The notes under the pieces are model-generated. The model saw only the letters and a list, made by a program, of their open reading frames with translations. It was not told the origin of the DNA and ran no database searches. The position numbers were made by a program, and so were the translations under genes. A stretch of 64,000 nucleotides of DNA from Mobula hypostoma (taxonomy: Eukaryota), in contig NC_086097.1 in NCBI RefSeq assembly GCF_963921235.1, positions 97,094,001 to 97,158,000 of the forward strand, given 5' to 3'. Below, piece after piece: positions 3,790 to 54,600 of the stretch. The stretch's first letter is position 1. Each line of letters opens with the position of its first letter.

Positions 3790-4110
3790 TTTCAGAGGGC
3801 CCAGAGGAGGTTCATGGAAATGATTCCAGGAATGAAAGGGTTAACATATGGGAAGCGTTTGATGGCTCTGGAGTCACTGCAGTTTAGAAGAATGATGGAG
3901 GATCTCATTGAAACCTATCGAAAATTGGAAGGTCTAGATAGAGTGGATGTGGAGAAGATGATTCCTATAGTTGGGGAGTCTGGGACCAGAGGGCACAGCC
4001 AAAGAATCCCTTGAGAACAGAGATGAGGAGGAATTTCTTTAGCCAGAGGGTGGTGTATCTGTGGAATCCAAGCCATTGGATAGATTATTGCAGAGGTTGA
4101 TAGTTTCTTG
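3790..4110 (+). mobile_element. CR1 3' fragment
   Basis: Peptide DLIETYRKLEGLDRVD...TRGHS. Confidence 0.75.
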
Positions 4111-7419: not shown

Positions 7420-10400
7420 TTGCTGTGTACATACATCTATTGATGCTTCTGGACACATCTTCAGTGATGTTCCTGGAATTATCGGGTGTTTCGGGTCTTT
7501 CAACATCATACAACCTCCTCCAGGTGACCCAGCCAGGGCTGATCAGACCCCAGCTTGTGTCCAGATGGCTAGCTACTTATGACTCCATGGCTCCCCTCTT
7601 TTGAGCCACAGCCATCTTGAGGCCCTCTCTGTCGCATCAGTGGTACTGCGGATGGCTCTCCTCTTCCTCTCTCCCTCGATGCTCAAAATGCTGAAGGCTC
7701 TAACTAAAGAACGGGCTATGAATCCCCTACAACCAACCTCCACTGGGAGACACCTCGCTCTCCATCCAGCCTGCTGGCAATTGCTGACCAGTCCTGCGTA
7801 CTTGGAGAGCTTCCTTTCAAAGGCCTCCTCCAAGCTATCTTCCCATGGGACTGTCAGCTCCAGCAGCACCACTTGCTTAGTAGACTCAGACACAAGGATA
7901 ATGTCTGGTCGCAGGGTGGTGGCTGCGATACGGTTGGGGAACTTCAGCTGCCGTTCGAGGTCCACCAACAGCTGCCAGTCCATTGCAGAGGTCAGAATGC
8001 CTGCAGATGTTCTTTTGGCAGGTATTGGCTGCTCCCCAGCTCTGACAAAGGCAATGGTCTGCTTGGAGGGTCGGGACCGCTTCGCCCAGTCAACTCCTGT
8101 GCTGACGGCTTCAGCAATGGTCTTCAGGACCTGATCATGCCTCCATCGGTACCGTCCCTCACCAAGTGCTCTTGCACAGCCGCTGAGGATGTGCTCCAGG
8201 GTTCCTTGCTTGGAGCACAGTGGGCACGCAGATGACTCTGCCTTGCCCCATGTGTGCAGGTTTGATGGGCTTGGAAGCACATCATACACTGCCTGGATGA
8301 GAAATTGGATGTGGTGTGGTTCGGCTTTCCAAAGATCAGCCCAGGTCACTTTCCTCTCAACCGCATTCTCCCATCTTGTCCAAGCTCCCTGTTGCTTCAT
8401 TCCCATCGCCTTGCAGGCTCTCATCTCCTCCACTACTGCTCTCACCTCCTCCTGAACTAGACGACGCCTTTCCTTCCCTCTGGTGTCCAGTTGGGGAGTT
8501 GGAAAGGATCCTAGCCCAGCTCGGCCTTGTGTGACCACTCCCACCAGCCTCCTGTGATGCAGCCTCGCCTCTGCCTCCTGAACAGCTTCCTCTGCCCTCC
8601 ACTTCCTGCCAGTACTTACTTGGATCCCTGCTCTAGCCACTTTCGGATCACTTGAGTCCCTATACTGTAGCACTTCTCTGGCTCTAGTTACCTTGAATTC
8701 TTCCTCCAAGGATTTGAAGGGCAGTTGCAGTTTGTTGTGGTGTCCATAGAGTGCGATGCTGCTCAGGCTCTTTGGCAGCCCCAGCCATCTCCTGAGGTGG
8801 TTGCTAACCCTCCTCTCTAAGGTTTCGACTGTCGAGATCGGAACTGCGTAGATGAGGAGGGGCCACAGGATTCTGGGAAGAATGCCATGCTGATACACCC
8901 AGGCTTTAAACTTCCCAGGTAGGCCAGACTTGTCCACAGATTTCAGCCAGCTTTCCAACTCGGTGTAGGTTGCCTGAATGGATGTTGTGTCCCTTAAAGA
9001 GCTGTCAAAAACTTTGCCTAAGCTCTTGACTGGCTTTTCTGTGATGGTTGGGATGGCTGTGCCTGCGATGCTGAACCAGAACTTGTTCTCCACCTTCCCT
9101 TTCCTCAGCACCATCGATCTTGATTTGGCAGGTTTGAAACGTATCCGGGCCCACTCCACCAGCTTTTCGAACCCTTGCAGAATCCACCGGCAGCCTGGGA
9201 CTGATTCTGTGGTGACTGTGAGGTCATCCATGAATGCCCGGATAGGTGGTTGCCGTTGAGCGGAATTCATTCTGGGCCCTCTGCACTCTGGTTCAGCAGA
9301 CTTAGTGAGCATGTTCATGGCTAGGGAGAACAGTGTCACTGAGATAGTGCACCCTGTGATGATGCCGACCTCCACCTTGTGCCAGGTTGATGTAATTGCT
9401 CCTGAAGAGACCCTCATCCTGAAGTTGCTGTAATAATCAGCGATAAGGTCTCTGATTCTGCTGGGGACGTGATATTTGGTCAGTGTGAGCTGCACCAGCT
9501 TGTGCGGAATGGAGCCATATGCATTTGCCAGATCCAGCCACAACACTGACAGGTTGCTCTTGTTCTCTCTAGCCTCCCTGATGAGCTGTGTCACCACACT
9601 GATGTGCTCCAGACAGCCCGGCATCCCTGAAATGCCACCCTTCTGGACCGATGTATCAATATAGGTGTTCATTGCTAGGTAGGTGCACAACCGGTTGGAA
9701 ACGGCACTGAAGAAGATCTTTGCCTCGACACACAGCAGGGAGATGATGCGAAACTGATCTGTCTGGGTGGCATTTTCCTCCTTCGGGATCCACACCCCTT
9801 CAGCCACTCTCCACTGTTCTGGGATCTTCCCCCTTCTCCAGAAGATTCTCAGGATCTTCCACAGACGCAGCAGGAGTTTGGGGCAATTCTTGTACACTTT
9901 GTACAAGGTATTGCTTGGTCCTGGAGCCGAGCTTGCCCTTGCTTTGCGGACGACCTCTCTGACTTCCTTTAGTTGCAGCTCTGACACGTCGAACTGCACA
10001 TCCGGTTCTGGTGGGTCTATTAGGATGTTGCACTCTCCCAACTCCTGCTCTCTTTCAGGATCATTATATATCTTTTTCAGATGTTGGTCTATGTCTTCCT
10101 GCGAACAGGCCAGTTTCCCACTGCGCTTCTCCCCCAGCAACCCCTTGGTGAACATGAAGGGGTTGGCGATAAAGGCAGCACGTTTTCGAGCCCTTTCATG
10201 ACGCCGCCTCCAATGCCACTCTGCCCGGCGGAGGACCCTGATCTTCTTTCGTAGTATGCTCATCAGCTGGGCCAAGCCAATGCGCTCCTCTTCTCCCGCC
10301 TACTTGTATTGGGACTTCAGCGCTTTCACCTCCTGCCTGATGTTGTGGATCCTCAATGCTCTTTGGTTCTTTGAGTAAGGTGTTTTGGAGCCTTCCTTCT

Positions 10401-10930: not shown

Positions 10931-11216
10931 TAAGTTTAGCCTATAATACCTATAACATGTTGAAACCTAACGATTGACTATCTATTAAACTAATACTAAA
11001 AAACCATTAGTAACTAATGGAATCTACGGAGTCTGAGGGCCTGAGGGAAGTGTAAGTCACATTGGGGAAACAAGCAGCAAAAGTTTCTAACATGGGGAGG
11101 TGCCTTTGACCTTCGGCATGGGGTAGGGGTGGACTTGGGGGCTGCTGTTGGAGACCATGAGGGAAGTGGCCCCTTTCTCCGTGGCGCTCTGCCGTGACAC
11201 ACTCCTAGATGGATGC

Positions 11217-11445
11217 TGGACCAGCCGTTGTCTGTTGTTCATTCTGCAGCCTTTCTGCTTTAGTTTGGCAAGACCGTGGATCCAATGCCAGGCCTCGCTG
11301 GCGTCGGAGGCCACCAGATCCAAGTTCTCCCTCGTGCCCTTAAATATGATGGTAAAACAGCGGTCGGTGGGTATCTCGGTGGCGTACCGCTGCATTCCCT
11401 CCGTCTGGTGACCAGGTCTTAATTCTTTGATGTCGTCGATTGAGA
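11217..11445 (-). CDS. Phospholipase C-delta family exon, C-terminal half of PH domain
   Basis: Acceptor ttgcag|TC, in phase with the previous exon. Translates FSIDDIKELRPGHQTEGMQRYATEIPTDRCFTIIFKGTRENLDLVASDASEAWHWIHGLAKLKQKGCRMNNRQRLV, PLCD1/PLCD3-like. The 3' boundary is uncertain (no canonical GT at the homologous position). Confidence 0.9.
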
Positions 11446-12542: not shown

Positions 12543-12859
12543 GCTGGAGGAACACAGCAGGGCAGGTGAATTGTCCTGTGATTTGTCTGACATTAAACAG
12601 GTGGACCGCTGGGTGGTGTGGCCTTTTGGGCCAGAAGGATCTGTCTGCACTCTTATCTCCAAATAAAATAGAATCAATAAAAGATAGAATCCAGGTAACT
12701 GGTGCCATGAAGCAGTAACTCTACTGGCCTCAGCGTGGTGCCATACCAGGAATCAAGGACTAATCCCTGCACTTGTTGGTGCCCAAGACAATTTTTAAAA
12801 ACTTTTTAAAAATACTTTTGCTGTCACACCAACCCTCCCAAGACTTGAGCAACACTCAC

Positions 12860-13024
12860 ACATTTGGCTCCTGGCTGACTTCAGGATCTTTTTGGAATTA
12901 TACCTCACCGTCCAGCAGTCTTCATTCAGTTTGTAGTAGCGTGACTTCATCCATGAGCTGGATTTGATCTTCAGCATGTGAGTACCCTTGAGCATGACTT
13001 GAATATCGTTGTCATTCTTGAGGC
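12860..13024 (-). CDS. Phospholipase C-delta family exon, N-terminal half of PH domain
   Basis: Acceptor cccaag|GC, donor ATGT|gtgag, 165 nt. Translates GLKNDNDIQVMLKGTHMLKIKSSSWMKSRYYKLNEDCWTVRYNSKKILKSARSQM, recognisably like PLCD1 [37 protein letters not shown]. Confidence 0.93.
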
Positions 13025-14146
13025 CTTGGGAGGAACACGGAGAGGATGCATCTGATGGAGAGATGGCAGTATGGAAGTGGAGGGTGCGGAGAGTGGGTAG
13101 TGAAGGGGAAGTGGAAGGGAGGGAAGGAGTGATGGAACAGACAAGTGGAGAGTGAGGATCTGGTGAGGCAGGGGTAAGTAGTCAGGAGTTAGGAAGGTAG
13201 GGGAGAACAGTGGAGGACAGAGGAAGGGTGTTAATGGGTAGGAGAGGGGAAGGTATTGCAATGAGTGGGATAGAACACCAGAGCACACCACAGGCCCTTC
13301 AGCCCACAGTATTGTGTCAAACTTTTAACCTGTTCTAAGATCAATATAACCCTTTCCCCAGATAGAGCACTCCCTTTTTCTATCATTCATGTGCTCTGTC
13401 CAGGTATTTCTTAAATGTACCTAATGTATCTGCCTCTATCACAACCCCTGGGGTGGTTCCCCACACACACCACTCTCTGTGTACACTCCCTGCTATTTGC
13501 CATTCCCTCCCTGGGAAAATATCTCTGGCTATCCACTCGATCTATGTTTGTTATGACCTTGTACACTTCTCTCAAGTCCCCTCTCACCGTCCTTCACTCC
13601 AAAGAGAAAAGCCCTTGTGTGCTCACCCTGTCCTCATAAGACTACATGAGGATGGGTTAAACTAGCCCAGGCAGCATCCTGGTGAATCTCCTCTGCACAA
13701 TCGATATGAAAGTTGGGGGGGGAGGATTGGAAGCTTTCAACTGAACTTGGAGGAACTCCATGGTGTCTTGGGGAGAATGTACAAACTCCTTACAGAGAGC
13801 AGTGGAACTGCACCCTGATCGGAGATCACTGGCCCTGTGGAGCGTCGCACTAACTGCTTCTCCACTGTGCCGTACCAGTGGCAAGGGGAGTGAGATAATT
13901 AATGTGGGTGGGAGATTGCAGGTAAACAAAGGATCTGTGAGGTCATGACGTGTCATTGAGAGATCTGCACAGAAACAGGCCCTTCAACCCACCATTTCAA
14001 TGATGTCATCTATACTAACCCCAGAAATCAGCATTTGATCAGTAGCCTTCTACAACTTGGATATTCCAGTGCCCCAAAGTCTTTGGAACACAGCCCCCTT
14101 TATATAAAAAAAGATACAGCAATTGTGTCTATACATTTATTTTTAC

Positions 14147-15626
14147 CTTCATCAACTTCAGAAGATTGTGGATTCCAGCCTTCTGTGTTTCCTCCAGGAC
14201 CAAACGATTCCTCTTTCCATTTCCCTACTTTCTTTGACCCATCTTCAGGCACCAGTTCCCTAAACCTGAGAACTCTTCTCCAGGCCCTGCGTTGTCCCCT
14301 TCCAATCCTCTGCCCTACTCTTGGCTGTCTCCTTTGGAGTTTTGTCTGCCACTTTCTCATGCGCTTACTCTCTCCAGCCGACTCCTCCAGGGAGCTCTTT
14401 CTCTTGCCCAATTTTATTCCCCTCCTCATGCCCACTTGCACATTGGTGAAGTCACCCAACCCACCCCCCAGCCTCTCTTCATCCTTCTGCTCCTGCTGAT
14501 CTCTGATGGTTGCTTTGCCCTCCCGTCCATTTTCCTCCCTCTCATCCTCTCGATTCCAGTGTTCGTCCACTGGGCTCAGCTCCAGTTCAGTCACCTCTAT
14601 TTGGGTATGCCCAAGAGCCGGTTCGGGACTTGGCCCTCGATCTTCCGGAGCCGGTTCGGGACTTGGCCCTCGATCTTCCGGAGCCGGGTCGGGACTTGGC
14701 CCTCGATCTTCCGGAGCCGGGTCGGGACTTGGCCCTCGATCTTCTGGACCCGAGTCAGGTCTTGGCCCTCGATCTTCTGGAGCCGGGTCGGGACTTGGCC
14801 CTCGATCTTCCGGAGCCGGTCTGGGGCTTGGCCCTCGATCTTCCGGAGCCGGGTCGGGACTTGGCCCTTGATCTTCCGGAGCCGGGTCGGGACCGAGCCC
14901 TCGATCTTCAGGAGCCGGGTCGGGACCGAGCCCTCGATCTTCCGGAGCCGGTCCGGGACTTGGCCCTCGATCTTCCGGAGCTGGGTCGGGACTTGGCCCT
15001 CGATCTTCTGGAGCCGGGTTGGGACCGAGCCCTCGATCTTCCGGAGCTGGGTCGGGAACGAGCCCTCGATCTTCCGGAGCCGGTCCGGGGCCGAGCCCTC
15101 GATCTTCCGGAGCCGGTCCGGGACCGAGCTCTCGATCTTCCGGAGCCGGTGCGGGACCAAGTCCTGGATCTTCCGGAGCCGGTTCGGGGCTTGGCCCTGG
15201 ATCTTCCAGAGCTGGGTCGGGACTTGGCCCTCGATCTTCCGGAACCGGTCCGGGGCCGAGCCCTCGATCTTCCGGAGCTGGTCCGGGACCGAGCTCTCGA
15301 TCTTCCGGAGCCGGTGCGGGACTAAGCCCTTGATCTTCCGGAGCCGGATCGGGACTTAGCCTTCGATCTGCCAGTCCCTGTGATGAGATCCCCTGCTCAT
15401 TTCCTCCATCTCCTGATTCTATACTCCCCTCCTCCATATTCTGGCTTCTAACCTTGGACTGCGCTTTGCAATCCACTGGCTGAGCTGTGTCAATTACATG
15501 CTTGGCCTTCACAGCTTGGTGGCGCTTCTTGGCGAAATTCTGGTAGGCCCACCAGCCAATGATGATGGTAGCACTGCCTATCGACAGGCCAAGGACCACC
15601 CGCCTGTTTAGTTTGCAGAATTCCAT
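14147..15626 (-). CDS. PLC-delta-like gene, putative first coding exon: signal-anchor-like helix, 23x 11-aa repeat, basic region
   Basis: ATG at 15626 (MEFCKLNRRVVLGLSIGSATIIIGWWAYQNFAKKRH). Frame open for 493 codons + 1 nt to donor GAAG|gtaaaa at 14147/14146. Phase 1 matches the next exon (G|GC = Gly). Confidence 0.7.
14610..15368 (-). repeat. 33-bp coding minisatellite, 23 units (consensus peptide DRGPSPDPAPE)
   Basis: Units counted in the translation from DRRLSPDPAPE to DRGPSPEPALG. All are exactly 33 bp with no frameshift. Confidence 0.97.
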
Positions 15627-24090: not shown

Positions 24091-26527
24091 GGTAAGGGTG
24101 CTGAGGAAGAGGATTTCTTGGAACGTATGCGGGATGGTTTTTTGAACAACATGTCGAGGAACCAACTAGAGAGCTGGTATTGAGCAATGAGGAAGGGTTA
24201 ATTAGCAATCTTGTCGTGAGAGGCCCCTTGGGTAAGAGTGACCATAATATGGTGGAATTCTTCATTAAGATGGAGAGTGACATAGTTAATTCAGAAACAA
24301 AGGTTCTGAACTTAAAGAAGGGTAACTCTGAAGGTATGAGACGTGAATTAGCTAAGATAGACTGGCAAATGATACTTAAAGGGTTGACGGTGGATATGCA
24401 ATGGCAAGCATTTAAAGATCACATGGATGAACTACAACAATTGTTCATCCCAGTTTGGCAAAAGAATAAATCAAGGAAGGTAGAGCACCCGTGGCTGACA
24501 AGGGAAATTATGGATAGTATCAATTCCAAAGAAGAAGCATACAAATTAGCCAGAGAAAGTAGCTCACCTGAGGACTGGGAGAAATTAAGAGTCCAGCAGC
24601 AGAGGACAAAGGGCTTAATTAGGAAAGGGAAAAAAGATTATGAGAGAAAACTGGCAGGGAACATAAAAACTGACTGTAAAAGCTTTTACAGATATGTGAA
24701 AAGAAAAAGACTGGTTAAGACAAATGTAGGTCCCTTACAGACAGAAACAGGTGAATTGATCATGGGGAACAAGGACATGGCAGGCCAATTGAATAACTAC
24801 TTTGGTTCTGTCTTCACTAAGGAGGACATAAATAATCTTCCGGAAATTGTAGGGGACAGAGGGTCTAGTAGGATGGAGGAACTGAGGGAAATACATGTTA
24901 GTAGGGAAGTGGTGTTAGGTAAATTGAAGGGATTAAAGGCGGGTAAATCCCCAGGGCCAGATGGTTTGCATCCTAGAGTGCTTAAGGAAGTAGCCCAAGA
25001 AATAGTGGATGCATTAGTGATAATTCTTCAAAACTCTTTAGATTCTGGATTAGTTCCTGAGGATTGGATGGTGGCTAATGTAACCCTGCTTTTTAAAAAA
25101 GGAAGGAGAGAGAAACCGGGGAATTATAGACCGGTTAGCCTAACATCGGTGGTGGGGAAACTGCTAAAGTCAGTTATCAAAGATGTGATAACAGCACATT
25201 TGGAAATTGGTGAAATCATCGGACAAAGTCAGCATGGATTTGTGAAAGGAAAATCATGTCTGACGAATCTCATAGAATTTTTTGAGGATGTAACTACTAG
25301 AATGGATAGCGGAGAACCAGTGGATCTGGTATATTTGGATTTTCAAAAGGCTTTTGACAAGGTCCCACGCAGGAGATTAGTATGCAAACTTAAAGCACAC
25401 GGTATTGGGGGTAAGGTATTGATGTGGATAGAGAATTGGTTGGCAGACAGGAAGCAAAGAGTGGGAATAAACGGGACCTTTTCAGAATGGCAGGCAGAGA
25501 CTAGTGGGGTACCGCAAGGCTCAGTGCTGGGATCCGAGTTGTTTACAATATATATTAATGACTTAGATGTGGGAATTAAATGCAGCATCTCCAAGTTTGC
25601 GGATGACACGAAGCTGGGCGGCAGTGTTAGCTGTGAGGAGGATGCTAAGAGGATGCAGAAGACTTGGATAGGTTAGGTGTGTGGGCAAATTCATGGCAGA
25701 TGTAATTTAATGTGGATAAATGTGAGGTTATCCACTTTGGTGGCAAAAATAGGAAAACAGATTATTATCTGAATGGTGGTCGATTAGGAAAAGGGGAGGT
25801 GCAACGAGACCTGGGTGTCATTATACACCAGTCATTGAAAGTGGGCATGCAGGTACAGCAGGCGGTGAAAAAGGCGAATGGTATGCTGGCATTCATAGCA
25901 AGTGGATTCGAGTACAGGAGCAGGGAGGTACTACTGCAGTTGTACAAGGCCTTGGTGAGACCACACATGGAGTATTGTGTGCAGTTTTGGTCCCCTAATC
26001 TGAGGGAAGACATTCTTTCCTTAGAGGAAGTACAAAGAAGTTTCACCAGATTGATTCCTGGGATGGCAGGACTTTCATATGGTGAAAGACTGGATCGACT
26101 AGGCTTATACTCGTTGGAATTTGGAAGATTGAGGGGGGATCTTATTGAAATGTATAAAATCCTAAAGGGATTAGACAGGCTAGATGCAGGAAGGTTGTTC
26201 CCAATGTTGGGTAAATCCAGAACGAGGGGTCACAGTTTGAGGATAAAGGGGAAGCCTTTTAGGACAGAGATTAGGAAAAACTTCTTCACACAGAGAGTTG
26301 TGAATCTGTGGAATTCTCTGCCACAGGAAACAGTTGAGGCCAGATCATTGGCTATATTTAAGAGGGAGTTAGATATGGCCCTTGTGGCTAAAGGGATCAG
26401 CGGGTATGGAGGGAAGGCAGGTACAGGGTTCTGAGTTGGATGATCAGCCATGATCATACTGAATGGTGGTGCAGGTTTGAAGGGCCGAATGGCCTACTCC
26501 TGCACCTATTTTCTATGTTTCTATGTT
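24091..26527 (+). mobile_element. CR1 LINE, 5'-truncated, young
   Basis: 498-aa and 240-aa ORF2 pieces (SDHN, PGNYRPVSLTS, GVPQGSVLG, KFADD). Tail (ttctatgt)n. Inserted inside a pLTR. Confidence 0.95.
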
Positions 26528-26690
26528 ACTACCCATTGTGCTTTCTCCTATTCCTTCTTCACCTTTCCTGCCCATCCCCTCCCCCACCCCTTTATCTTTC
26601 CCCTCACTGGTTTTTCACCTGGCACCTACCAGCCTTTTCCTTCCCACCCTCCTCCCACCTTCTTTATAGGGCCCTTGCCCCCTTCCTCTT

Positions 26691-26728: not shown

Positions 26729-27589
26729 TTCGTTTCCACGGATGCTGCCCGACCTGTTGATTTCCTCCAGCGTGTTGTGAGTGTTGATAGTTTCTTGATT
26801 AGTAAGGGTGTCAACAGTTATGGGACAAGGCAGGAGAATGGTGTTGAGAGACAGAATAGCCATAATGGAATGGTGGAGCAGACTTGACGGGGCAAATGGC
26901 TTAATTCTGCTCCTAAGTCCTATGGCCTTTGTGTTATCCAAGGGGAGGGTTTTAAGGATCAGTATCTGTGGCATGGTCACCCACCATGCACTGCTCAATC
27001 TTTGCAGAATGGCTGGACTGCCAGAGTCCAAAAAATAAATATATCTGTCTGAATAACAAGAGGTGCAAGTTCAGGCTGTGTCTGGACCAAGTACTATCTG
27101 GTTCACTGCCATTCTTCCACCACTGCTGTGTCTATGTCCATCACCAGAGGTTCTGCAAAAGTTCACGAAGGCTACTCTCCACCACCTTGTCAAGGGCCAC
27201 AAACAAGGGGAAAAAGAAATGCGGGTTAAATCTGGCAAATAAATTTTAAAACATACTGTACATCGGGTTCTGACCAGTTGGGATTGTTTAAAGCACAAAA
27301 CAATCCAGCAATATTTGATTCATGTTTACGTTAACAGAATTTTGAATATGAAATTGGCTTTGGCACAATATCATAATATTTTTAATAGTAGAATTTAGAC
27401 CAACAAATTTCTGGCGGCTGAAATTTTGCAGGAAAGGAGAGAGATTCCTAACCACCCGCTTCCTTCTCTACCCTCGCTCTTAAATGAAGAGTGACCCTAC
27501 CCGTGGCCAGATCCTCCCAGCAAGAAACTGCATGTACTCTCTTTTGTTTTAATTGATGTGAGCTTTGCAGGCAGAGCAAACATTTAATT

Positions 27590-33268: not shown

Positions 33269-33681
33269 TTAATTAAAGCACCCAACTCCGGGGTCTGTGC
33301 TAATTTTGGACATTTTATACACAATGATATTTTTATCATCTATCCTGTCAACCACCTGGCAATTAAAATATTGAGGCAGAAGCTGCTTGTGAAAAGAGGA
33401 CGAGCCATTCCTCTTCCGCAATTCGGAAGAGAGGTAAATTGTGGCTCTGTGGCTGGCGAGGTGTCGCAATGTGTCCATGAGTGCCGGGTAGCTCACTGAG
33501 CTGTAAACAATATCGGAACCCAGGATGAAGTCATAGTCGGAGGGAAAGCTCGTGTGGTCTTCACCCCAGGTCAGAGCACGGACCTTTACACGGTGCCTGC
33601 AGGCAGAGGGGATGTTGATGGAGACATTGTTTTCTATTTGCTTCAGGATGCTTGGCTTATCGGTCACAGTCACCTCTCCAC
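33269..33681 (-). CDS. EEF1AKMT3: EEF1A lysine methyltransferase 3-like, exon 3 to stop codon
   Basis: Pyrimidine tract + tcag|GT. Translates GGEVTVTD...VRALTWGEDHTSFPSDYDFILGSDIVY (DxxY motif)...LLPQYF. The three exons total 693 nt = 230 aa + stop. Confidence 0.92.
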
Positions 33682-34220
33682 CTGACCAAGAGAGAAAAAA
33701 AGATCCATTTCTATTCGCCCTTAATTATCGTGATCACAGAAAGAACAGTGTAAGAAATCTGGGTAGAGTTCAATCTTATTTCGGGAGACAGTAGCATTGC
33801 TTATTGTTTTAAAACTAGCACAGCACAAAGGCCAAATAGCTTGGGAATCTAATAGTCTTTCCTACAATCAAAGTCCGCTCAGTACATCATTTGCAATAAA
33901 TGGTCATATAATTATTAAGACAAAAATTGGTCAGGTAAACTAGGTTGGTGTGGTATGAATTTTAACTCGGGCAGGACACCTGTAGAACTGAACTTGGACA
34001 GGGACTCTCGATTTTGTTATACAGGAGAAGAGAGGTCAATCCGTGCGAAAGCGACATACCTTCAGACTACATTTATTATTTTCTGACTAAACTAAACGGG
34101 TTTAACAGTGTCCTAGACAATAACACCCTTTTCTCCCTATCCATCACCCCCGTCATTATTTTCCAGATTCCATGTTAATATCAGAAAAGACTGGATTTCA
34201 GTTCATTACCCCGCCTTTCA

Positions 34221-45601: not shown

Positions 45602-48600
45602 TGTTACATGCTCAAGGAGATCTGTTTTTTGTGAGAATGCTGTAATGGTCTTTTGGAGGTCACCTGATGTGATTTTCCCGCCGATGTGAGGTCACGTGAT
45701 GACATGTTCCCCGCCCCCCCCGTGTCTATATAAGGGTCGACTCAGGTGACGCAGTGGGTTTTTGAGTTTGTAGATTTCCTGGTGGAACGTGTTGTGCCTC
45801 CGTTTCTGTTGCGTGTTTATTTTTGTGCCGCAGTTTCATTTTTAAAACGGAAGGTGCGTTCTCTTGCAAGATATTGCATTTGGATTGGAAATTTGAGGCT
45901 GGAAGTGCCAATTTACTCAATTCCGACAATTCTGAAGGGAGAGTGAAGAATTCATCAAAGTGAAGCATCGACAGAAGTCGGCATAGTTTGGCAGTTTAAT
46001 AAAGGATCGACCTTATTGCGTCTTCGTTGAAGAGAACCTGCATTGAGATAACTCTTGTAAAAGCGCAATGAGTTCATGCACAAAGGCTCTCTCTCGAAAA
46101 GGAAGTTAAGGTCAGTCGATATAAACTGTTTATTTTCGGCATCGGGAATCCTGTGGACAGAATCAGCAGTAAAGGTGCGTCTGTGAATAAATCCTTCTCC
46201 AGAGAAGTCTCTCCCAATTGAATGTGTAAAACCGTTGGACTTTAGAAGTTTTCGCTTTAAGAACTATATCTGATTGTATCGCTTTAAGAAATGTTTTCGC
46301 ATTTAACGCTTTAAGAACCAGAGCCGAGTGGAGTTGATGAACGGCTGCGTACCTGTTTAACCTCCGGTTAAAATTTTCCTTTTTTTTTCTTTTATCGTTT
46401 ATACATGTTTAATAAATGTTTGGTTGTTTTCATAAAACCTGTCTCGATTAATATTCATTGTTGCCGGTTACGTAACATAATTTTGTGGGTGCTCGTGGGA
46501 TATGTTCTGATTCTGAGTTTAAGTGCTGATAATTGCCATTTTGATTTGGTAAAAGGGAATACCCGGTTTTTTTTTTGGTTTGATTGGTGTATGTGTTGTA
46601 TTCGGCAACAATGGATATTGACGAGTTTTAGAAGACGCCTGACTCGGGATTTTTAAAGAATGCGAGAAAACCTGTGGTATTGGAGATTGCTAAGAAGTTG
46701 GATATTAAAGGAATTACGAGGAATTCTACCAAGGCTTTCATACAAAGGAAAATTGCTGAACATTCTATTAATTTGGAATGTTTTGAGGAGGAGGTGTTAG
46801 AGAAGTTTCCAATGAGTAATCTCGAAATGCAGTTGCATCTTGAACAGTTAAAGTTTGAAAGATTTAAAGTGGAAATGAGAGGAAGAGAAGCTGAAAACCA
46901 GAGGAAATTTGAGCTAGAGATGGAGAAAATAGGGTCTGGGAATCAGTCTTCTGGTTCTACAAAACAATTTATTGCTAGTCGTGAGGTTGTTTTGGCTCCT
47001 CCATTTAATGAAACTGATGTGGATGCATATTTTCAGCATTTCGAAACAGTTGCTCTGAGTTTAAAGTGGCCAAAGGACCAATGGCCAGTGATGTTACAAA
47101 GTGTAATTAAAGGCAAGGCACAACAAGTTTACACAGCTTTAAATGCTGAGCAAGCACTGGATTATGATATTGTTAAAGAGAATATATTAAAAGCATACGA
47201 GATGGTTCCGGAAGTGTATAGAGAAAGATTTAGAAGTTTAAAGAAATCGGTGGAAAAAACTTGTGGAATTTGCTTATGAGAAATCTGTGTTTTGAGAGAT
47301 GGGTTTCCTCTAAAAATGTGAATGGGGAGTATAATAAATTGAAAGAGCTGATTTTGCAGGAGGAATTTAAAAGAAGCATTCCTGTTGAAGTGAGAACATA
47401 CTTAAATGAACGGGACACTGCTACATTGCAGGAAATTGCTAAGTTGGCTGATGAGTATGTTTTAATTCACAAGAATAAATTTTCTCCAGGTACAATTTTT
47501 AAAAGGAAAACTAGCACAGAGAGTCAAGGTAAATCAGAAATTAAATCTGAAGTTAGTGAGAAAAGTAAGGATGAAGGGAGACGTGAAGGAAAGACATTTT
47601 GGTATTATTTGTAATTATTGTTAAGAAACCTGGACCTGTAGTGGCTAATTGCTTCTGATTGAAACGGAAAGAGAAAGAAGTGGCCCCAGATGCTTGTGTG
47701 CAGCATATTGAAAAACCTGTAAAACCACAGGGTTTAGGAAATATTAATGAAGATGTGTCAGAGTCTGACCAAGTTAAGAAGGGATATGAGGCTTTTATAG
47801 CAGAAGGATTTGTATCCTTGAAAGAAGGATCCAATGCAGTACTGATAAGGATACTTAGAGATACTGGAGCTTCACAATCACTAATATTAGATAGTGTGTT
47901 AAGGTTTAGTGATGAGTCTGACATTGATGAGGTAAATTATATAAGAGGAGTAGGGAGTGCCCTTATGCCAGTACATTAACATAGAGTAAATTTAAGGTCA
48001 GGATTAGTTACAGGGGTTGTTAAAGTAGGACTACAATCCAGTTTACCTGTGAATGATGTTTCTCTTTTGTTAGGGAATGATTTAGCAGGTGGACAAGTTT
48101 TTCCTGAAGTGCATTTGACAATAAATTCAAATTCTGAGGAACCACAGAGGGATTCTAACATAGATTCTTCCTGTGTTGTAACAAAAGCTATGGCTAAAAA
48201 AGACTGATGTAAAAGATGTGGTTGTTACCCATGACAGTTCAAATCAAGATTTGAATTTTGAGGATGTATCAGAAACTTTCTTATCTACCTTATTTGATCA
48301 GGATTTTGATGGTAAGTCTGATGGGAAGATTTGTCTTTATCTCGGAAGGAGATGATAGCAGAGCAGGGTAGGGATCCTGAGATAGTTAAATTAAAAGAGC
48401 AAGCCCTTCCAGATAGTGAAATTGTAAAAGTACTAGTTGGATATTATTTTGAAAAGGGGGTATTAATGAGAAAGTGGAGATCGCCTACAATTCTTGCTAA
48501 TGAGGAATGGGAAGTTAATCATCAGGTTGTTGTTCCTAAAATTTACCGAAATGAGATTTTGACTATGCCTCATAGTATTCCTTTGGGTGGTCATTTAGGG

Positions 48601-51600
48601 ATAAAGAAAACTATGAACAAAGTTTCTAAACATTTTTATTGGCCTAGTTTAAGACAAGATGTGGCGACATTTTGTAGAACATGTCATACATGTCAAATTG
48701 TGGGTAAACCTAATCAGGTTACTCCAGTGGCCCCACTGCAACCAATTCCAGTATTCGGTGAGCCGTTTTCAAAAATCATTGTAGACTGTGTAGGTCCTTT
48801 GCCAAAAACTAAAACTGGACATCAATATTTATTAACTATTATGTGTACAGCATCTAGGTTTCCAGAGGCAGTACCTCTTAGGAATATAATAGCCAAAACT
48901 GTGACAAAGGCTCTTATAAAATTCTTCACTTATTTTGGGTTCCCTAAGGAAATACAATCTGATCAAGGAAGTAATTTTATGTTTGGGTTGTTTCAGCAGA
49001 TAGTTTATAAACTGGGAGCAAAGCAGATTATTTCCTCAGCCTATCATCCAGGATCACAAGGAGCCTTGGAGAGATTTCATTCTACATTAAAAACTATGAT
49101 TAGGACATATTGTGTAGAAAATGAAAAGGATTGGGATGAAGGTATACAGTTACTACCTTTTGCAGTCAGGGAGGTAGTACAGGAATCATGAGGTTTTAGT
49201 CCTATTGAACTTGTGTTTGGACATAGAGTTCGAGGACCTTTGGCTTTGTTGAAGGAACAGTGGATTAATAAAGAAGTATACACTAGTTTGTTAGATTATG
49301 TTTTGAAATTTAAAGACAGGTTGTACAAAGCTTGTAGTATGGCCAAAGAAAATTTTAAGTTAGCTCAAGAGAACATGAAGACGTGGTATGATAAGGAAGC
49401 TACGATGAAGTCATTTAAGCCTGGAGATAAGGTGTTGGTTCTTTTCCCAGTGGAAATGAACCCATTACAGCAAAATTCCATAGTCCTTATGAGATTAAAT
49501 CTAAGGTAAATGAGGTGGATTATGTGGTAAAAACCGCAGATAGGAGAAAGACAACACAGCTGTGTCATATAAATATGATAAAGCCGTATTATGAGAGAGA
49601 GGTTGTTACTGTGACTGTTAAGGAAAAGGGTTAAGGAAATTAAACTCCAATTTAATAATCCAGTTTAATGTTACAGGAGTAGAATATTTTGATCACTCAT
49701 ATCAAGGGTAAAGATAATGTGATCACTGACAGTTTGTCTAGATGTTGAATGTACAATGAAAATTTTTTTTTTGAAGTGATGTTTTTAATCATTTGTAACA
49801 CTCCTACTGTACATTAGTTTGTAAAGGACTGAAAGATAAGATTGTATATATTGTGTATTTTGTAAATTTTATACCTTTGTATTTTTTTGTATAAATTGTT
49901 AAATTTTTGTTTTTCGAGAGACCAAAAATTTTTTTTTTTGGAGAGAGGTGTTACATGCTCAAGGAGATCTGTTTTTTTTGTGAGAATGCTGTAATGGTCT
50001 TTTGGAGGTCACCTGATGTGATTTTCCCACCGATGTGAGGTCACGTGATGATATGTGCCTCCCCCCCCCCCGTGTCTATATAAGGGTCGACTCAAGTGAC
50101 GCAGTGGGTTTTTGAGTTTGTAGATTTCCAGGTAGAATGTGTTGTGCCTCCGTTTCTGTTGCGTGTTTGTTCTTGTGACGCAGTTTCATTTTTAAAACGA
50201 GAGGTGCGTTCTCTTACAAGATATTGCGTTTGGATTGGAAATTTGAGGCTGGAAGTGCCAATTTACTCAATTCCGACAATTTTGAAGGGAGAGTGAAGAA
50301 TTCATCGAAGTGAAGCATCGAGAGAAGTCGGCATCGTTTGGCAGTTTAATAAAGAATCGACCTTATGGAGTCTTCGTTTGAAGAGAACCTGCTTTGAGAT
50401 AACTCTTGCAAAAGGGCAATGAGTTCATGCAAAAAGGTGCTCTCTCTAAAAGGAATTTAAGGTCGTCAATTTAAACTGGTTATTTTCAGCATTATGAATC
50501 CTGTGGACAGAACCAGCAGTAAAGGTGCGTCTGTGAATAAATCCTTCTCCGGAGAAGTCTCTCCCAATTGAATGCGTTAAACTGTTGGACTTTAGAAGTT
50601 ATCGCTTTAAGAACTATATCTGACTGTATCGCTTTAAGAAATGTTTTTGCATTTAACGCTTTAAGAACCAGAGCCGAGTGGAGTTGATGAACGGCTGCGT
50701 ACCTGTTTAACCTCCGGTTAAAATTTTCCTTTGTTTTTTTTTCTCTTATCGTTTGTACGTGTTTAATAAATGTTTGGTTGTTTTCATAAAACCTGTCTCG
50801 ATTAATATTCATTGTTGCTGGTGTAGCCCCCCTGGCCACCCTCAGGGTCGCTCGGCTCGCTGTCGTCTAGGGAAACAGCCTCGGCCCTGCCAAACTGGAT
50901 AATTCGTTTATGTGGATGCTGTGTGAGGTACCCCACCCCGCCCAAATAACAGACAATACACCAGATGCAATTAAATGATATACAGTTTATAGATATTACT
51001 GGAACTATATAATTAAAAGAGAATAAATTATAAAAGGAAAATAAAAGGTGCCACACTTATCAGAGTTCAATCTCTTCGTGCACAAAAACCCGTTGGAGCT
51101 CAAGGACCTTCTTCTTCACCCTGCGACCCCCTCGGACCACCTCGACCGGCCGCCTGGGACCAACAACGGTGGTCAACCAGACGCTCCACAGGAGTCCGTC
51201 TCCTTGCCGAACGTCCCGCTCGGGGTCCGACCCCGTTAGCGGACTCACAGCACCTCGTCCATCCTCTGTCTCGCTCTCCCGCCTTCTACCCCAAAACCCC
51301 GCGCATACAGTATCTTCAAATACACCAAAACCATAACAACTATCCCAATTGGTTAATAACGTTTTTCTTATCACCTTCTGAACCAAAGTAGTGCAAACTT
51401 TCTCAACGTTTAACACAACAAAGCCGCATTCCCCAGATTAACATAACAAAGACGCCATTTTAATTAGCCTCCGCAGTAACATAAAAATCGAAACCCCCTT
51501 ACACTCTCCCCCCACCAAATAAAGTCATGTCCTCATGACTTCTAAATAACTCGCCACCCAGTCCTGCAGACACACAACACACACATACACAGATACACAC

Positions 51601-54600
51601 AGTGACAGTGCTCCCCAAACAGTGGACCTGACTCCCGTCCCACGGGCGCTACATAGGCCAACCTATCTGGGAGCTTCTTAACCCTCCGAGACCTCTGTAC
51701 CCCCTCACCTAAACCCAAAAGGCTCAGACACTACTAGGGATACCTCGGGCCTGCTTGCCAACTCCTCTCTCACTCAGGCCACCATTACAGCTCAGAGCCC
51801 CCAGTCCCGTGTCCGGGCCCCGCCTCTCCTCCTTCCCAATCCTGCCACAACTCAGACTGCCCACAGCTAGCCCTCCCCACTACACCTGACTCAGTGGGAG
51901 AAGGGCCAAAGGTCTCTTCCTCAATCATGGGGAAGTTAGTGAAAGGCAGCATGTACCACATGTGCCCCACATCATCCTTTGAATCCGTATCCTTCCTCAT
52001 TCCCTCGATCGGTAGCTGCTGTTTAAGTTTCTCCAAACTGAAACATTTAGCTGGGGCTACCCCTTCAGCCTCCTGCAGTCGAGACGTCAGCTTCTTCGGG
52101 GACTCCTTTAACTCTCGCCACAGCCTCCGCAGTTCTGACTCAGGGTTCCTGGCCATCTCAGTCTGGGACGCAGTTACCCCACCAGCTTCTCCCTCCCTGA
52201 CCTGAAAAGCAGCAGTTAAAGAATGTTCAGCCTCCGGTGGTTTCTTCCTGAGGGCGTCTTCCAGGTCAACGTTCAGTTTTTCCACTTCATTTAAACTCAC
52301 GATAGTCAACTTCAGGTTCCTTTCAAGCGTCCGCCTCCCTTTACCGAGATCTGTCCTCCATTTCTTTACCTCCTCGGGAGTGTAGTCAAACTCCCCTCCC
52401 CGGGCTCTCGGTTTTCTGTTGACCTTAGTCAGAACACTTCCATGATCTTCCCCAACTTGCAAGTCTTCCAATCTGTTCTGAATCGACGTCTTGAGTTTCT
52501 GCTGATCCCTTCGAAGGCGGGTCATTGTTTCTTCTCGCTGGATTAATTCGTCAGTATATGACCGCAGTGCGGTGCAAATCCCCTTTCTCCCCTGTGTCTC
52601 ATTCAGATTGGCGACCCAGGTTTTCATCCCCAGGTCCACCACTGTCTGTCCCAACACCAGGAAGTTCAACTGGTATGTCGGGTCATTTTGCACCAAACTC
52701 CTCTGGCCAAAAACTCCTCCACATTTGACACTTCGCTTCGGTCGCCCGGGCTCAGCCACTCGCCTCGCCTCATAGTCCCCCCAGGCGAATCCAAGCTCTA
52801 GGCGGTCATCCACATACGTCAAAACTCCACACACCTTCACTTCCCCCATGGTCTTCCTCATGCCCCGCGGGAAGGATGTAGGGGCTCCGGATATGCCCTC
52901 GGGCATCTTTTCGGATTGGAGGAATCCTAGGGAACTAGTAAAGGCCATCTTCAGCTCAACAGCCGCACCCCTCAGGATCTGGCAACATCCACTCCTCAGA
53001 TGCAGCACATTAAACCACATCGCATCATCCACACACACGCTGCCTTCATCTTCCACGCCGCCAGGGTCCAGTTGCTGCGACCTCTCTCTCACTGAGGTGT
53101 CTTCAGCGGTCAACTTCCCTCCCTCGTGGTGGTTCGGAGCATCTACTAAGAGGGTCTCACCCTCAACTACTTTCCCCAAGCCGTACCACCGCTGGGTCTC
53201 GTTTAAATTCGGTACTGGCTCAAGCCTGCTACACACGTCCTCAGAAGCAACTCGACACGCTGGGTGCCCAGACAATGCCCCCATGAACTCCAGGGTCACT
53301 AACCAAACATTGTCTTCTGGATAACTACTGCCACTAGTACCCAAAGTCTCCGGTGCCCTTGCGGTTGTCAAGGATAAATGCTTCAGACACCGGTTGTAAA
53401 ACGAACTGTACAACAACTTGATCTGTGCCCCGAGGTCGAGGATGGCTTTAGCATCGCTTCCCTCTATTCATAACGACACCCTGGGGCGTGGTCCCTCTAA
53501 GCCTTCAGGAATAGGGTCTTTTCCTTGCGGAAGTTCAGTGGTACATTGCTGGGAACGTGCTTCCCCAGAGACCCCAAGCCTTTCCCCCACTGGGCCTCCA
53601 CTAAGTTTCTCGATCCCTCTCTGATCAGCTGAATAACTGAGGGAGGGGCTGATCCCCTGAAATGATCCCCCTGGTACTACAAGCAATTTAGCCGCCCTCC
53701 TCACCAGAGAAGACACACTGAAAACTTTCCCCCCCTCTTTCAAATAACTGACAGCTGTCACTACGGTGTAAGTGAACCTGACAGCTCTAACACTGTCACC
53801 AGCCCGCCTACTCAAACCTTCAACCAATCCCTGTCGCTCTCCCTCAACCGAGCACTGCCACTCATGTAACAACTGAGAGATCCTCTCCGCCCGCGTCTCA
53901 CACGCCTCCGCCCCTCTTGGGGTGGACACTATCCCAAGTGCCAGGCGGAGCCTGCCAGAGCTAGAACATTTATTCGCAGACTCTACCTCCAAATCAGACC
54001 ACTCTTTCCTCTCTCTCCCAACCGCATGGACAGCCCCGAGTGCCACCTCCAACTCGTCAATGCCAGCCTGAACTCGAACGAAGACCTCACCCACCACGCA
54101 TACAGCAATAACCAGCAAATAACCCACAGAGAGACACACTACAGATTTAAACAGGGCACTCACACAGCATACCAACAGCCTCAAGCATCCCGGACAAAGC
54201 CCCCACAATGTAGCCCCCCCGGCCACCCTCAGGGTCGCTCGGCTCGCTGTCGTCTAGGCAAACAGCCCTCGGCCCCGCCAAACTGGGTAATTAGTTTGTG
54301 TGGATGCTGTGTGAGGTACCCCACCCCGCCCAAATAACAGACAATACACCAGACACGATTAATTGATATACAGTTTATAGATATTACTGGAAATATATAA
54401 TTAAAAGAGAATAAATTATAAAAGGAAAATAAAGGGTGCCACACTTATCAAAGTTCAATCTCTTCGTGCACAAAAACCCGTTGGAGTTCAAGGACCTTCT
54501 TCTTCACCCTGCGACCCCCTCGGACCACCTCGACCGGCCGCCTGGGACCAACAACGGTGGTCGACCAGACGCTCCACAGGAGTCCGTCTCCGTCTCCTTG

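Follow-up and report, generated by a model that had tools for sequence, protein, structure and literature searches.

What protein, if any, is encoded where a long open reading frame lies just upstream of a PLC-delta PH exon in the genome of the ray Mobula hypostoma? The window analysed here is a 64,000-nt stretch of contig NC_086097.1 (positions 97,094,001 to 97,158,000 of the forward strand), and an earlier note made from its sequence alone had proposed that the frame is spliced to the PH exon and yields an organelle-anchored PLC-delta enzyme. The coding part of this first exon occupies window positions 15626-14147 on the minus strand, 1480 nt comprising 493 codons and one further base, beginning with the ATG at 15626 and ending after 14147 at a phase 1 donor (GAAG/GTAAAA, the slash marking the exon boundary). 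An intron of 1122 nt separates it from the acceptor AG preceding position 13024, and the junction reads in frame as G-L-K-N-D-N-D, in agreement with the proposed join across 1.1 kb. Both the 3' and the 5' parts of the exon have homologues in the genome, and the donor is conserved among copies with only ~40% protein identity, which argues that the open frame did not arise by chance. The conserved splice sites and one paralogue contig that bridges the intron (described below) support exon 1 as a genuine first coding exon that joins the PH exon by splicing.

Exon 1 encodes a signal-anchor-like helix, an acidic spacer with repeats, and a basic segment. Its one hydrophobic stretch, aa 10-28 (15543-15599, minus strand), has a mean Kyte-Doolittle hydropathy of 1.63 over 19 residues, as compared with 0.35 for the best interior window, and is predicted to form a single transmembrane helix followed by QNFAKKRH. 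The flanks carry a net charge of +2 before the helix and +5 over the next 17 residues, matching the lone hydrophobic stretch between basic residues seen at first inspection, and the region is hydrophobic in all 17 aligned frames. The repeats form a 33-bp minisatellite of 22.9 copies (14615-15369, minus strand) that encodes an 11-aa Pro/acidic unit, the whole array having a net charge of -39, and are followed by the basic segment (aa 396-460, net charge +18); the 23 acidic repeats and basic region of the earlier description are thus present. Searches for relatives of exon 1 returned no match for residues 340-493 among 259 candidates in proteins of 271-863 aa, none for the exon 1 of a family copy (L039) among 1.84 billion representative proteins, and none among the 8000 proteins of 500-2000 aa scored against an alignment of five exons 1, the last being weak evidence. 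In the ESM Atlas there was no usable match (best score 0.81, the chance level), Pfam gave only a sub-threshold Saf_2TM, and in the protein databases we found no record with exon 1. An AlphaFold model of the protein P0012, with a mean pLDDT of 43, was set aside.

The PH domain itself is readily recognized. Exon 2 (12860-13024, minus strand; 165 nt) encodes the first half of a PLCD1-type PH domain, and together with the start of exon 3 it aligns ungapped to the PLC-delta1 PH structure 1MAI (E 2.6e-14 and 8.8e-20; Pfam match to PF16457). In this alignment the equivalents of the ligand residues K30, K32, W36, R40 and K57, in rat PLCD1 numbering, are retained, as had been suggested at the outset. 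Exon 3 (11087-11445, minus strand) encodes the second PH half and then reads through the former intron 3 for 42 codons to a TAG at 11089-11087, ending in GTSPC. The ancestral donor site at 11215-11216 (minus strand) reads CCA/GCATCC here and CCA/GTATCC in the catalytic parent gene; GC is found in most copies and GT in three of them (L023, L049 and L091). The gene therefore consists of three exons with a predicted product of 667 aa. In most copies the exon-3 frame encodes 145 aa ending in DSISY, a tail absent from the window copy, which has lost one base. The same loss is seen in its four nearest intact relatives, where the frame was regained by +1 (L011-L013) or -5 (L014), giving a predicted 628-aa protein in L011. 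A CaaX C-terminus was considered and rejected, as neither TSPC nor LCLV fits. As regards the tail as a second anchor, its hydropathy spans 0.4-1.8 in the ten copies that have the full common-type tail.

No catalytic exons accompany these PH exons. Aligning the full-length ray PLCD1a protein P0042 by tblastn to 154 kb (the window and 90 kb downstream) recovered only the two PH exons and no EF, X, Y or C2 exon, and the X-domain model (PF00388) had no match downstream of the gene on its contig (97 Mb). Genome-wide, this model gave 52 matches among 82 candidates, and at only seven places does an X domain lie near a PH-exon match. Thus, of the PLC-delta hallmarks, the locus has the PH domain with K30, K32 and R40, whereas the X/Y barrel, EF hands and C2 are absent. 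Because no catalytic exons follow and the frame of exon 3 stays open as far as a stop codon, the window locus cannot encode the lipase, and the anchored enzyme originally envisaged at this position is not supported.

The window gene belongs to a large family. The ray genome holds at least 75 matches to the PH exon (92 candidates), at least 95 to exon 3 (114 candidates), at least 42 to the 3' end of exon 1 (60 candidates) and at least 35 to its 5' anchor part (61 candidates), all of which are lower bounds on exon matches rather than gene numbers. Among 43 loci examined, 15 keep all three exons open and flanked by GT-AG sites, including one (L017) that stops directly after the PH domain. The other 28 count as broken or incomplete in the DNA fetched; one of these has an open frame but a TT donor, and the rest show frameshifts, stops or a missing exon. 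Repeat number ranges from 0 to 23 among copies, with changes that preserve the frame, and intact copies have spacers of ~230 to 493 aa. The array is a recent expansion, and the long repeat tether emphasized earlier, real in the window gene, is confined to a young cluster on C1. A Hypanus sabinus model (P0011) joins an exon-1 end to exon 3 with a tail ending in DSISY, from which it follows that the family is older than the split between Mobula hypostoma and Hypanus sabinus. It probably derives from the 5' end of PLCD1a. Family members are already annotated as XP_062919286.1 and XP_062919287.1 (Mobula hypostoma) and XP_059845814.1 (Hypanus sabinus), which comprise half or all of the PH domain plus the DSISY tail; they appear as anchor-less fragments of 147-191 aa under the enzyme names 'PLCD1-like' and 'PLCD3-like'. 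A divergent repeat-free subfamily (L040, L042, L044, L050, L096 and L097, on C2, C50, C70 and C166) has a short Cys-rich tail ending in QRCCSLCLV. PH-exon copies, many of them containing stops, also cluster on C52 (41.7-42.0 Mb), C54, C40, C76 and C5 (121.2-121.5 Mb).

Codon models reveal different constraints on the two parts of the protein. For the PH exons, single-ratio models on hand-picked intact copies, a selection that biases toward open frames, gave an omega of 0.356 in 12 copies (2dlnL 44 against omega = 1), 0.317 in 15 copies (2dlnL 75) and 0.34 (2dlnL 14.9) in a set made up of L017 and the five nearest intact copies. In 17 copies whose exon 1 is broken or absent, omega was 0.60, and part of the low PH omega is therefore inherited, since these broken copies also fall below 1. 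Outside the repeats, exon 1 has an omega of 1.0-1.3; the values are 0.78 for its anchor core and 1.8 for the tail, and none of these differs significantly from 1. The PH domain is thus under purifying selection, and the exon-1 spacer is free in sequence yet open. When neutral evolution was simulated, the exon-1 frame stayed open in 7 of 5000 runs along the L050 branch and in 612 of 5000 along the window copy's own branch, the latter being a weak test.

The earlier note had proposed looking for reads that span 14147 to 13024. None of the sequencing runs that contain this sequence is on record as RNA, and four of the 11 listed, guessed to be RNA, were aligned to positions 12560-14610. One contig of 1653 nt (contig 10 of run X3) aligns to both exons, its two aligned pieces (on exon 2 and on exon 1) lying 48 letters apart where 50 are expected if the intron is spliced out, and extends 1015 nt further 5'; the intron skip is taken from the table of aligned pieces. 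This contig, the only one of its kind in one of the four runs, represents a paralogue of ~85% identity from another organism, and its diagnostic letters best fit the C45 68-71 Mb subgroup (13/19 and 7-8 of 8). Exon-1 pieces 97-98% identical to the window copy were found in X1 and X3 at a depth of ~6. Thus, a probable RNA from a paralogue joins exon 1 to the PH exon, but the only contig that crosses the window copy's donor without differences is unspliced (depth 2.8). Two other contigs (2782 nt in X1 and 1791 nt in X3) contain a parent-type PH exon preceded by only 125-173 nt, and the visible transcripts of the parent therefore lack an anchor exon; the loose end of the 1791-nt contig reads as P0043's annotated short first exon.

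The gene is enclosed in a 22.7-kb cassette (4111-26782) bounded by inverted retroelement termini, which we take to be of the Penelope class from their GIY-YIG and RT motifs; Pfam detected only RVT_1, in one of the pieces. A 15-bp target-site duplication flanks the cassette (4096-4110 and 26783-26797, plus strand), interrupting a LINE 3' region. Its 13-mer has two exact matches, where 0.11 would be expected at up to one mismatch. The nearby copies, to which the flank comparison was confined, share flanks of 93-98% identity that continue beyond the duplication, and they are thus segmental duplications rather than new insertions. Just downstream of the gene lies an open 908-aa retrotransposon frame (7573-10299, minus strand; RVT_1, zf-RVT), likely a later insertion because it is missing from the copy at 93.97 Mb. 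A 2.1-kb LINE stretch (24423-26531) recurs 34 kb apart, ~10 kb before the window, at 93.6% identity, and the segmental duplication unit may end at these repeats. Elsewhere in the window we observed a METTL21-type lysine methyltransferase exon (33272-33724, minus strand; PF10294, E 3.8e-17) and decayed LTR-retrotransposon-like frames (46632-49509, plus strand, and 51785-54253, minus strand), presumably gag and integrase judging by their motifs, with a weak PNMA match.

The catalytic parent, PLCD1a, was located at C5:222.14-222.23 Mb (P0042 exon matches of 86-100%). Within its intron 1, 10.6 kb before the PH exon at C5:222,140,012, we found an open, unannotated 259-codon exon homologous to exon 1 (C5:222128663-222129440; L053:8663-9440), with 36-41% identity to the family copies, an anchor of hydropathy 2.02 followed by RKFAKKR, and an in-phase donor (CAAG/GTAAAA). 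Its branch measures 1.03 changes per codon; at that length neutral simulation left the frame stop-free in 2 of 5000 runs (70 of 5000 at half the length), indels not being counted. None of the annotated PLCD1a isoforms in the clusters examined (up to 812 aa) begins with this exon. The parent gene may nonetheless give rise to an anchored PLC-delta1 isoform, so that the idea of an anchored PLC-delta, lost at the window locus, may hold there. Two diverged PLCD1 duplicates at C1:155.19-155.25 Mb and 155.40-155.44 Mb (L103-L106, L111-L122) have all exon types, including an anchor-type first exon with the same donor, of 342 codons in one and internally repeated in the other. Because the SLENH motif is missing and HNTY and VELDC are changed, and because E390 is described as a calcium ligand in a passage of PMC12195575, these are probably impaired enzymes, and possibly anchored pseudo-enzymes. 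The PLC-delta gene on C18 has no anchor-exon match within ~40 kb upstream. At C5:222250317, ~23 kb beyond the last matched exon of the parent, there is a second copy of parent exon 3 and the next intron, identical over 320 bases.

We propose, with about even confidence, that the window gene split off from PLC-delta1 as a gene of three exons without the enzyme part, and that its product is a tether. In this proposal the N-terminal helix would sit in an organelle membrane, probably the outer membrane of mitochondria, and the PH domain would reach PI(4,5)P2 on the plasma membrane across the disordered spacer. For the window copy, translation, membrane insertion, the organelle, lipid binding and tethering are all inferred. 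The helix would most likely insert with the C-terminus in the cytosol, and K30, K32 and R40 are, according to part of PMC2132833, required for plasma-membrane binding. Mitochondrial targeting, attributed in an excerpt of PMC2192658 to moderate hydrophobicity with downstream positive charge, is plausible for this anchor. Its hydropathy of 1.63 counts as moderate under that criterion, applied without a numeric threshold, and it appears to conform marginally to the Tom20 rule, as only one lysine falls within five residues after the helix (QNFAK, +1, then KRH), a count that depends on where the helix ends. The anchors of several paralogues reach a higher hydropathy (2.0-2.4), a point in favour of the ER, and an ER localisation of the product is possible. 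As to origin, PLCD1a would have possessed an alternative anchor-coding first exon near the one for the PH domain, and this 5' piece would have been duplicated; at least one duplicate would have come to lie in the Penelope-framed cassette and been spread by segmental duplications into a birth-and-death family, in which the GT donor of exon 3 would have disappeared and intron 3 sequence would have become a new tail. A wider version, in which the ray first exon makes PLC-delta1 an integral organelle-membrane protein, giving both an anchored active PLCD1a isoform and a selected enzyme-less anchor-spacer-PH family of mitochondria-to-plasma-membrane tethers, a vertebrate counterpart of Num1, is offered tentatively and is rather doubtful as a whole.

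Other readings deserve weight alongside the tether. The family may be mostly a by-product of a mobile, duplication-prone cassette, and the window copy a pseudogene of recent age that may be transcribed but serves no function under selection. We regard this as having an appreciable, if minority, chance of being right, given the Penelope-framed cassette with its target duplication, the segmental copies at 93-97% identity, the 28 of 43 broken or incomplete loci, the omega of about 1 or above in exon 1 and the tail, the frameshifted tail of the window copy and the unstable minisatellite. The PH omega of 0.34 among the five nearest intact copies and L017 argues in the opposite direction, as do the common tail frame regained by the four nearest intact relatives through two different compensating indels, the frame-preserving repeat changes and the deep lineages with open exon-1 frames, as on the L050 branch, the test being weak for the window copy's own branch.

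The same anchored PH-only protein could alternatively serve as a buffer or decoy, binding IP3 or PI(4,5)P2 near the organelle and damping PLC and calcium signalling, its own acidic spacer perhaps masking the PH site; we consider this unlikely. The span of spacer lengths among intact copies means that no fixed distance is maintained, as would suit such a role, but known tethers tolerate variable spacers too, and a long spacer would be unnecessary for buffering. The role would agree with the strong inhibition of agonist-driven inositol phosphate formation by the isolated PLC-delta PH domain described in part of PMC2132833, and with the binding of acidic peptides by the PLC-delta1 PH lipid site reported in bioRxiv 10.64898/2026.09.21.753330, the spacer here carrying a net charge of -39. 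That the window locus makes a full, active anchored PLC-delta is very improbable. The PH exon is joined in frame, a GC donor is usable in principle and three copies have GT, yet the missing EF, X, Y and C2 exons in the 90 kb downstream and the missing X domain in 97 Mb of contig contradict it, barring an assembly error or trans-splicing.

The predicted product can be set beside known systems. PLC-delta enzymes are known as soluble proteins. The word 'transmembrane' does not occur in a PLC review (PMC12195575), and a literature search on ray PLC-delta or PLCD1 expansion or duplication, Mobula gene families and an alternative transmembrane first exon of PLCD1, covering few subscription journals, found no description. 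The window gene shares with PLC-delta1 (PLCD1a of rays, skates and sharks, e.g., P0042 and P0043; 1MAI) the PH sequence, exon boundaries, phases and the residues K30, K32, W36, R40 and K57; it differs in having no EF hands, catalytic barrel or C2, and in carrying the 493-aa anchor exon and an intron-derived tail. It stands outside the PLC enzymes because the catalytic core is absent. The anchor-spacer-PH arrangement is a real, lineage-restricted new architecture made from known parts, with a function that is predicted. If the proposal is true, an exon that anchors PLC-delta1, together with a family reduced to anchor and PH domain, would put the best-studied PI(4,5)P2 sensor to a new purpose, the significance being limited by restriction to one lineage and by many dead copies.

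AKAP1 and TDRKH are signal-anchored proteins of the mitochondrial outer membrane. With proteins of this class, such as Tom20, exon 1 shares a short, moderately hydrophobic N-terminal helix with basic residues behind it, but no sequence match was found and only +1 lies within five residues of the helix end. A functional parallel is yeast Num1, the anchor linking mitochondria, ER and cortex, one end of which, as a portion of PMC4896055 describes, binds mitochondria while a separate lipid-binding domain binds the plasma membrane; PH and repeat regions of Num1 are mentioned in part of PMC12033498. The likeness is one of functional layout only, as Num1 binds mitochondria by a coiled coil rather than a predicted transmembrane helix, and homology is not expected. 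In a section of the same review on mammalian mitochondria-plasma membrane contacts, the contacts are described and no dedicated tether protein is named; the window gene would be a candidate natural single-chain tether of this kind. Finally, dispersal of intron-containing genes by Penelope elements is known in a rotifer, according to part of PMC3846280, where host genes mobilised in Adineta vaga combine an intron-containing gene, element termini and a target-site duplication as the window cassette does. The present cassette would be an example, from a vertebrate, of a host gene carried between Penelope termini; it differs from those of Adineta vaga in its host, in its length of 22.7 kb and in the spread of its nearby copies by segmental duplication.
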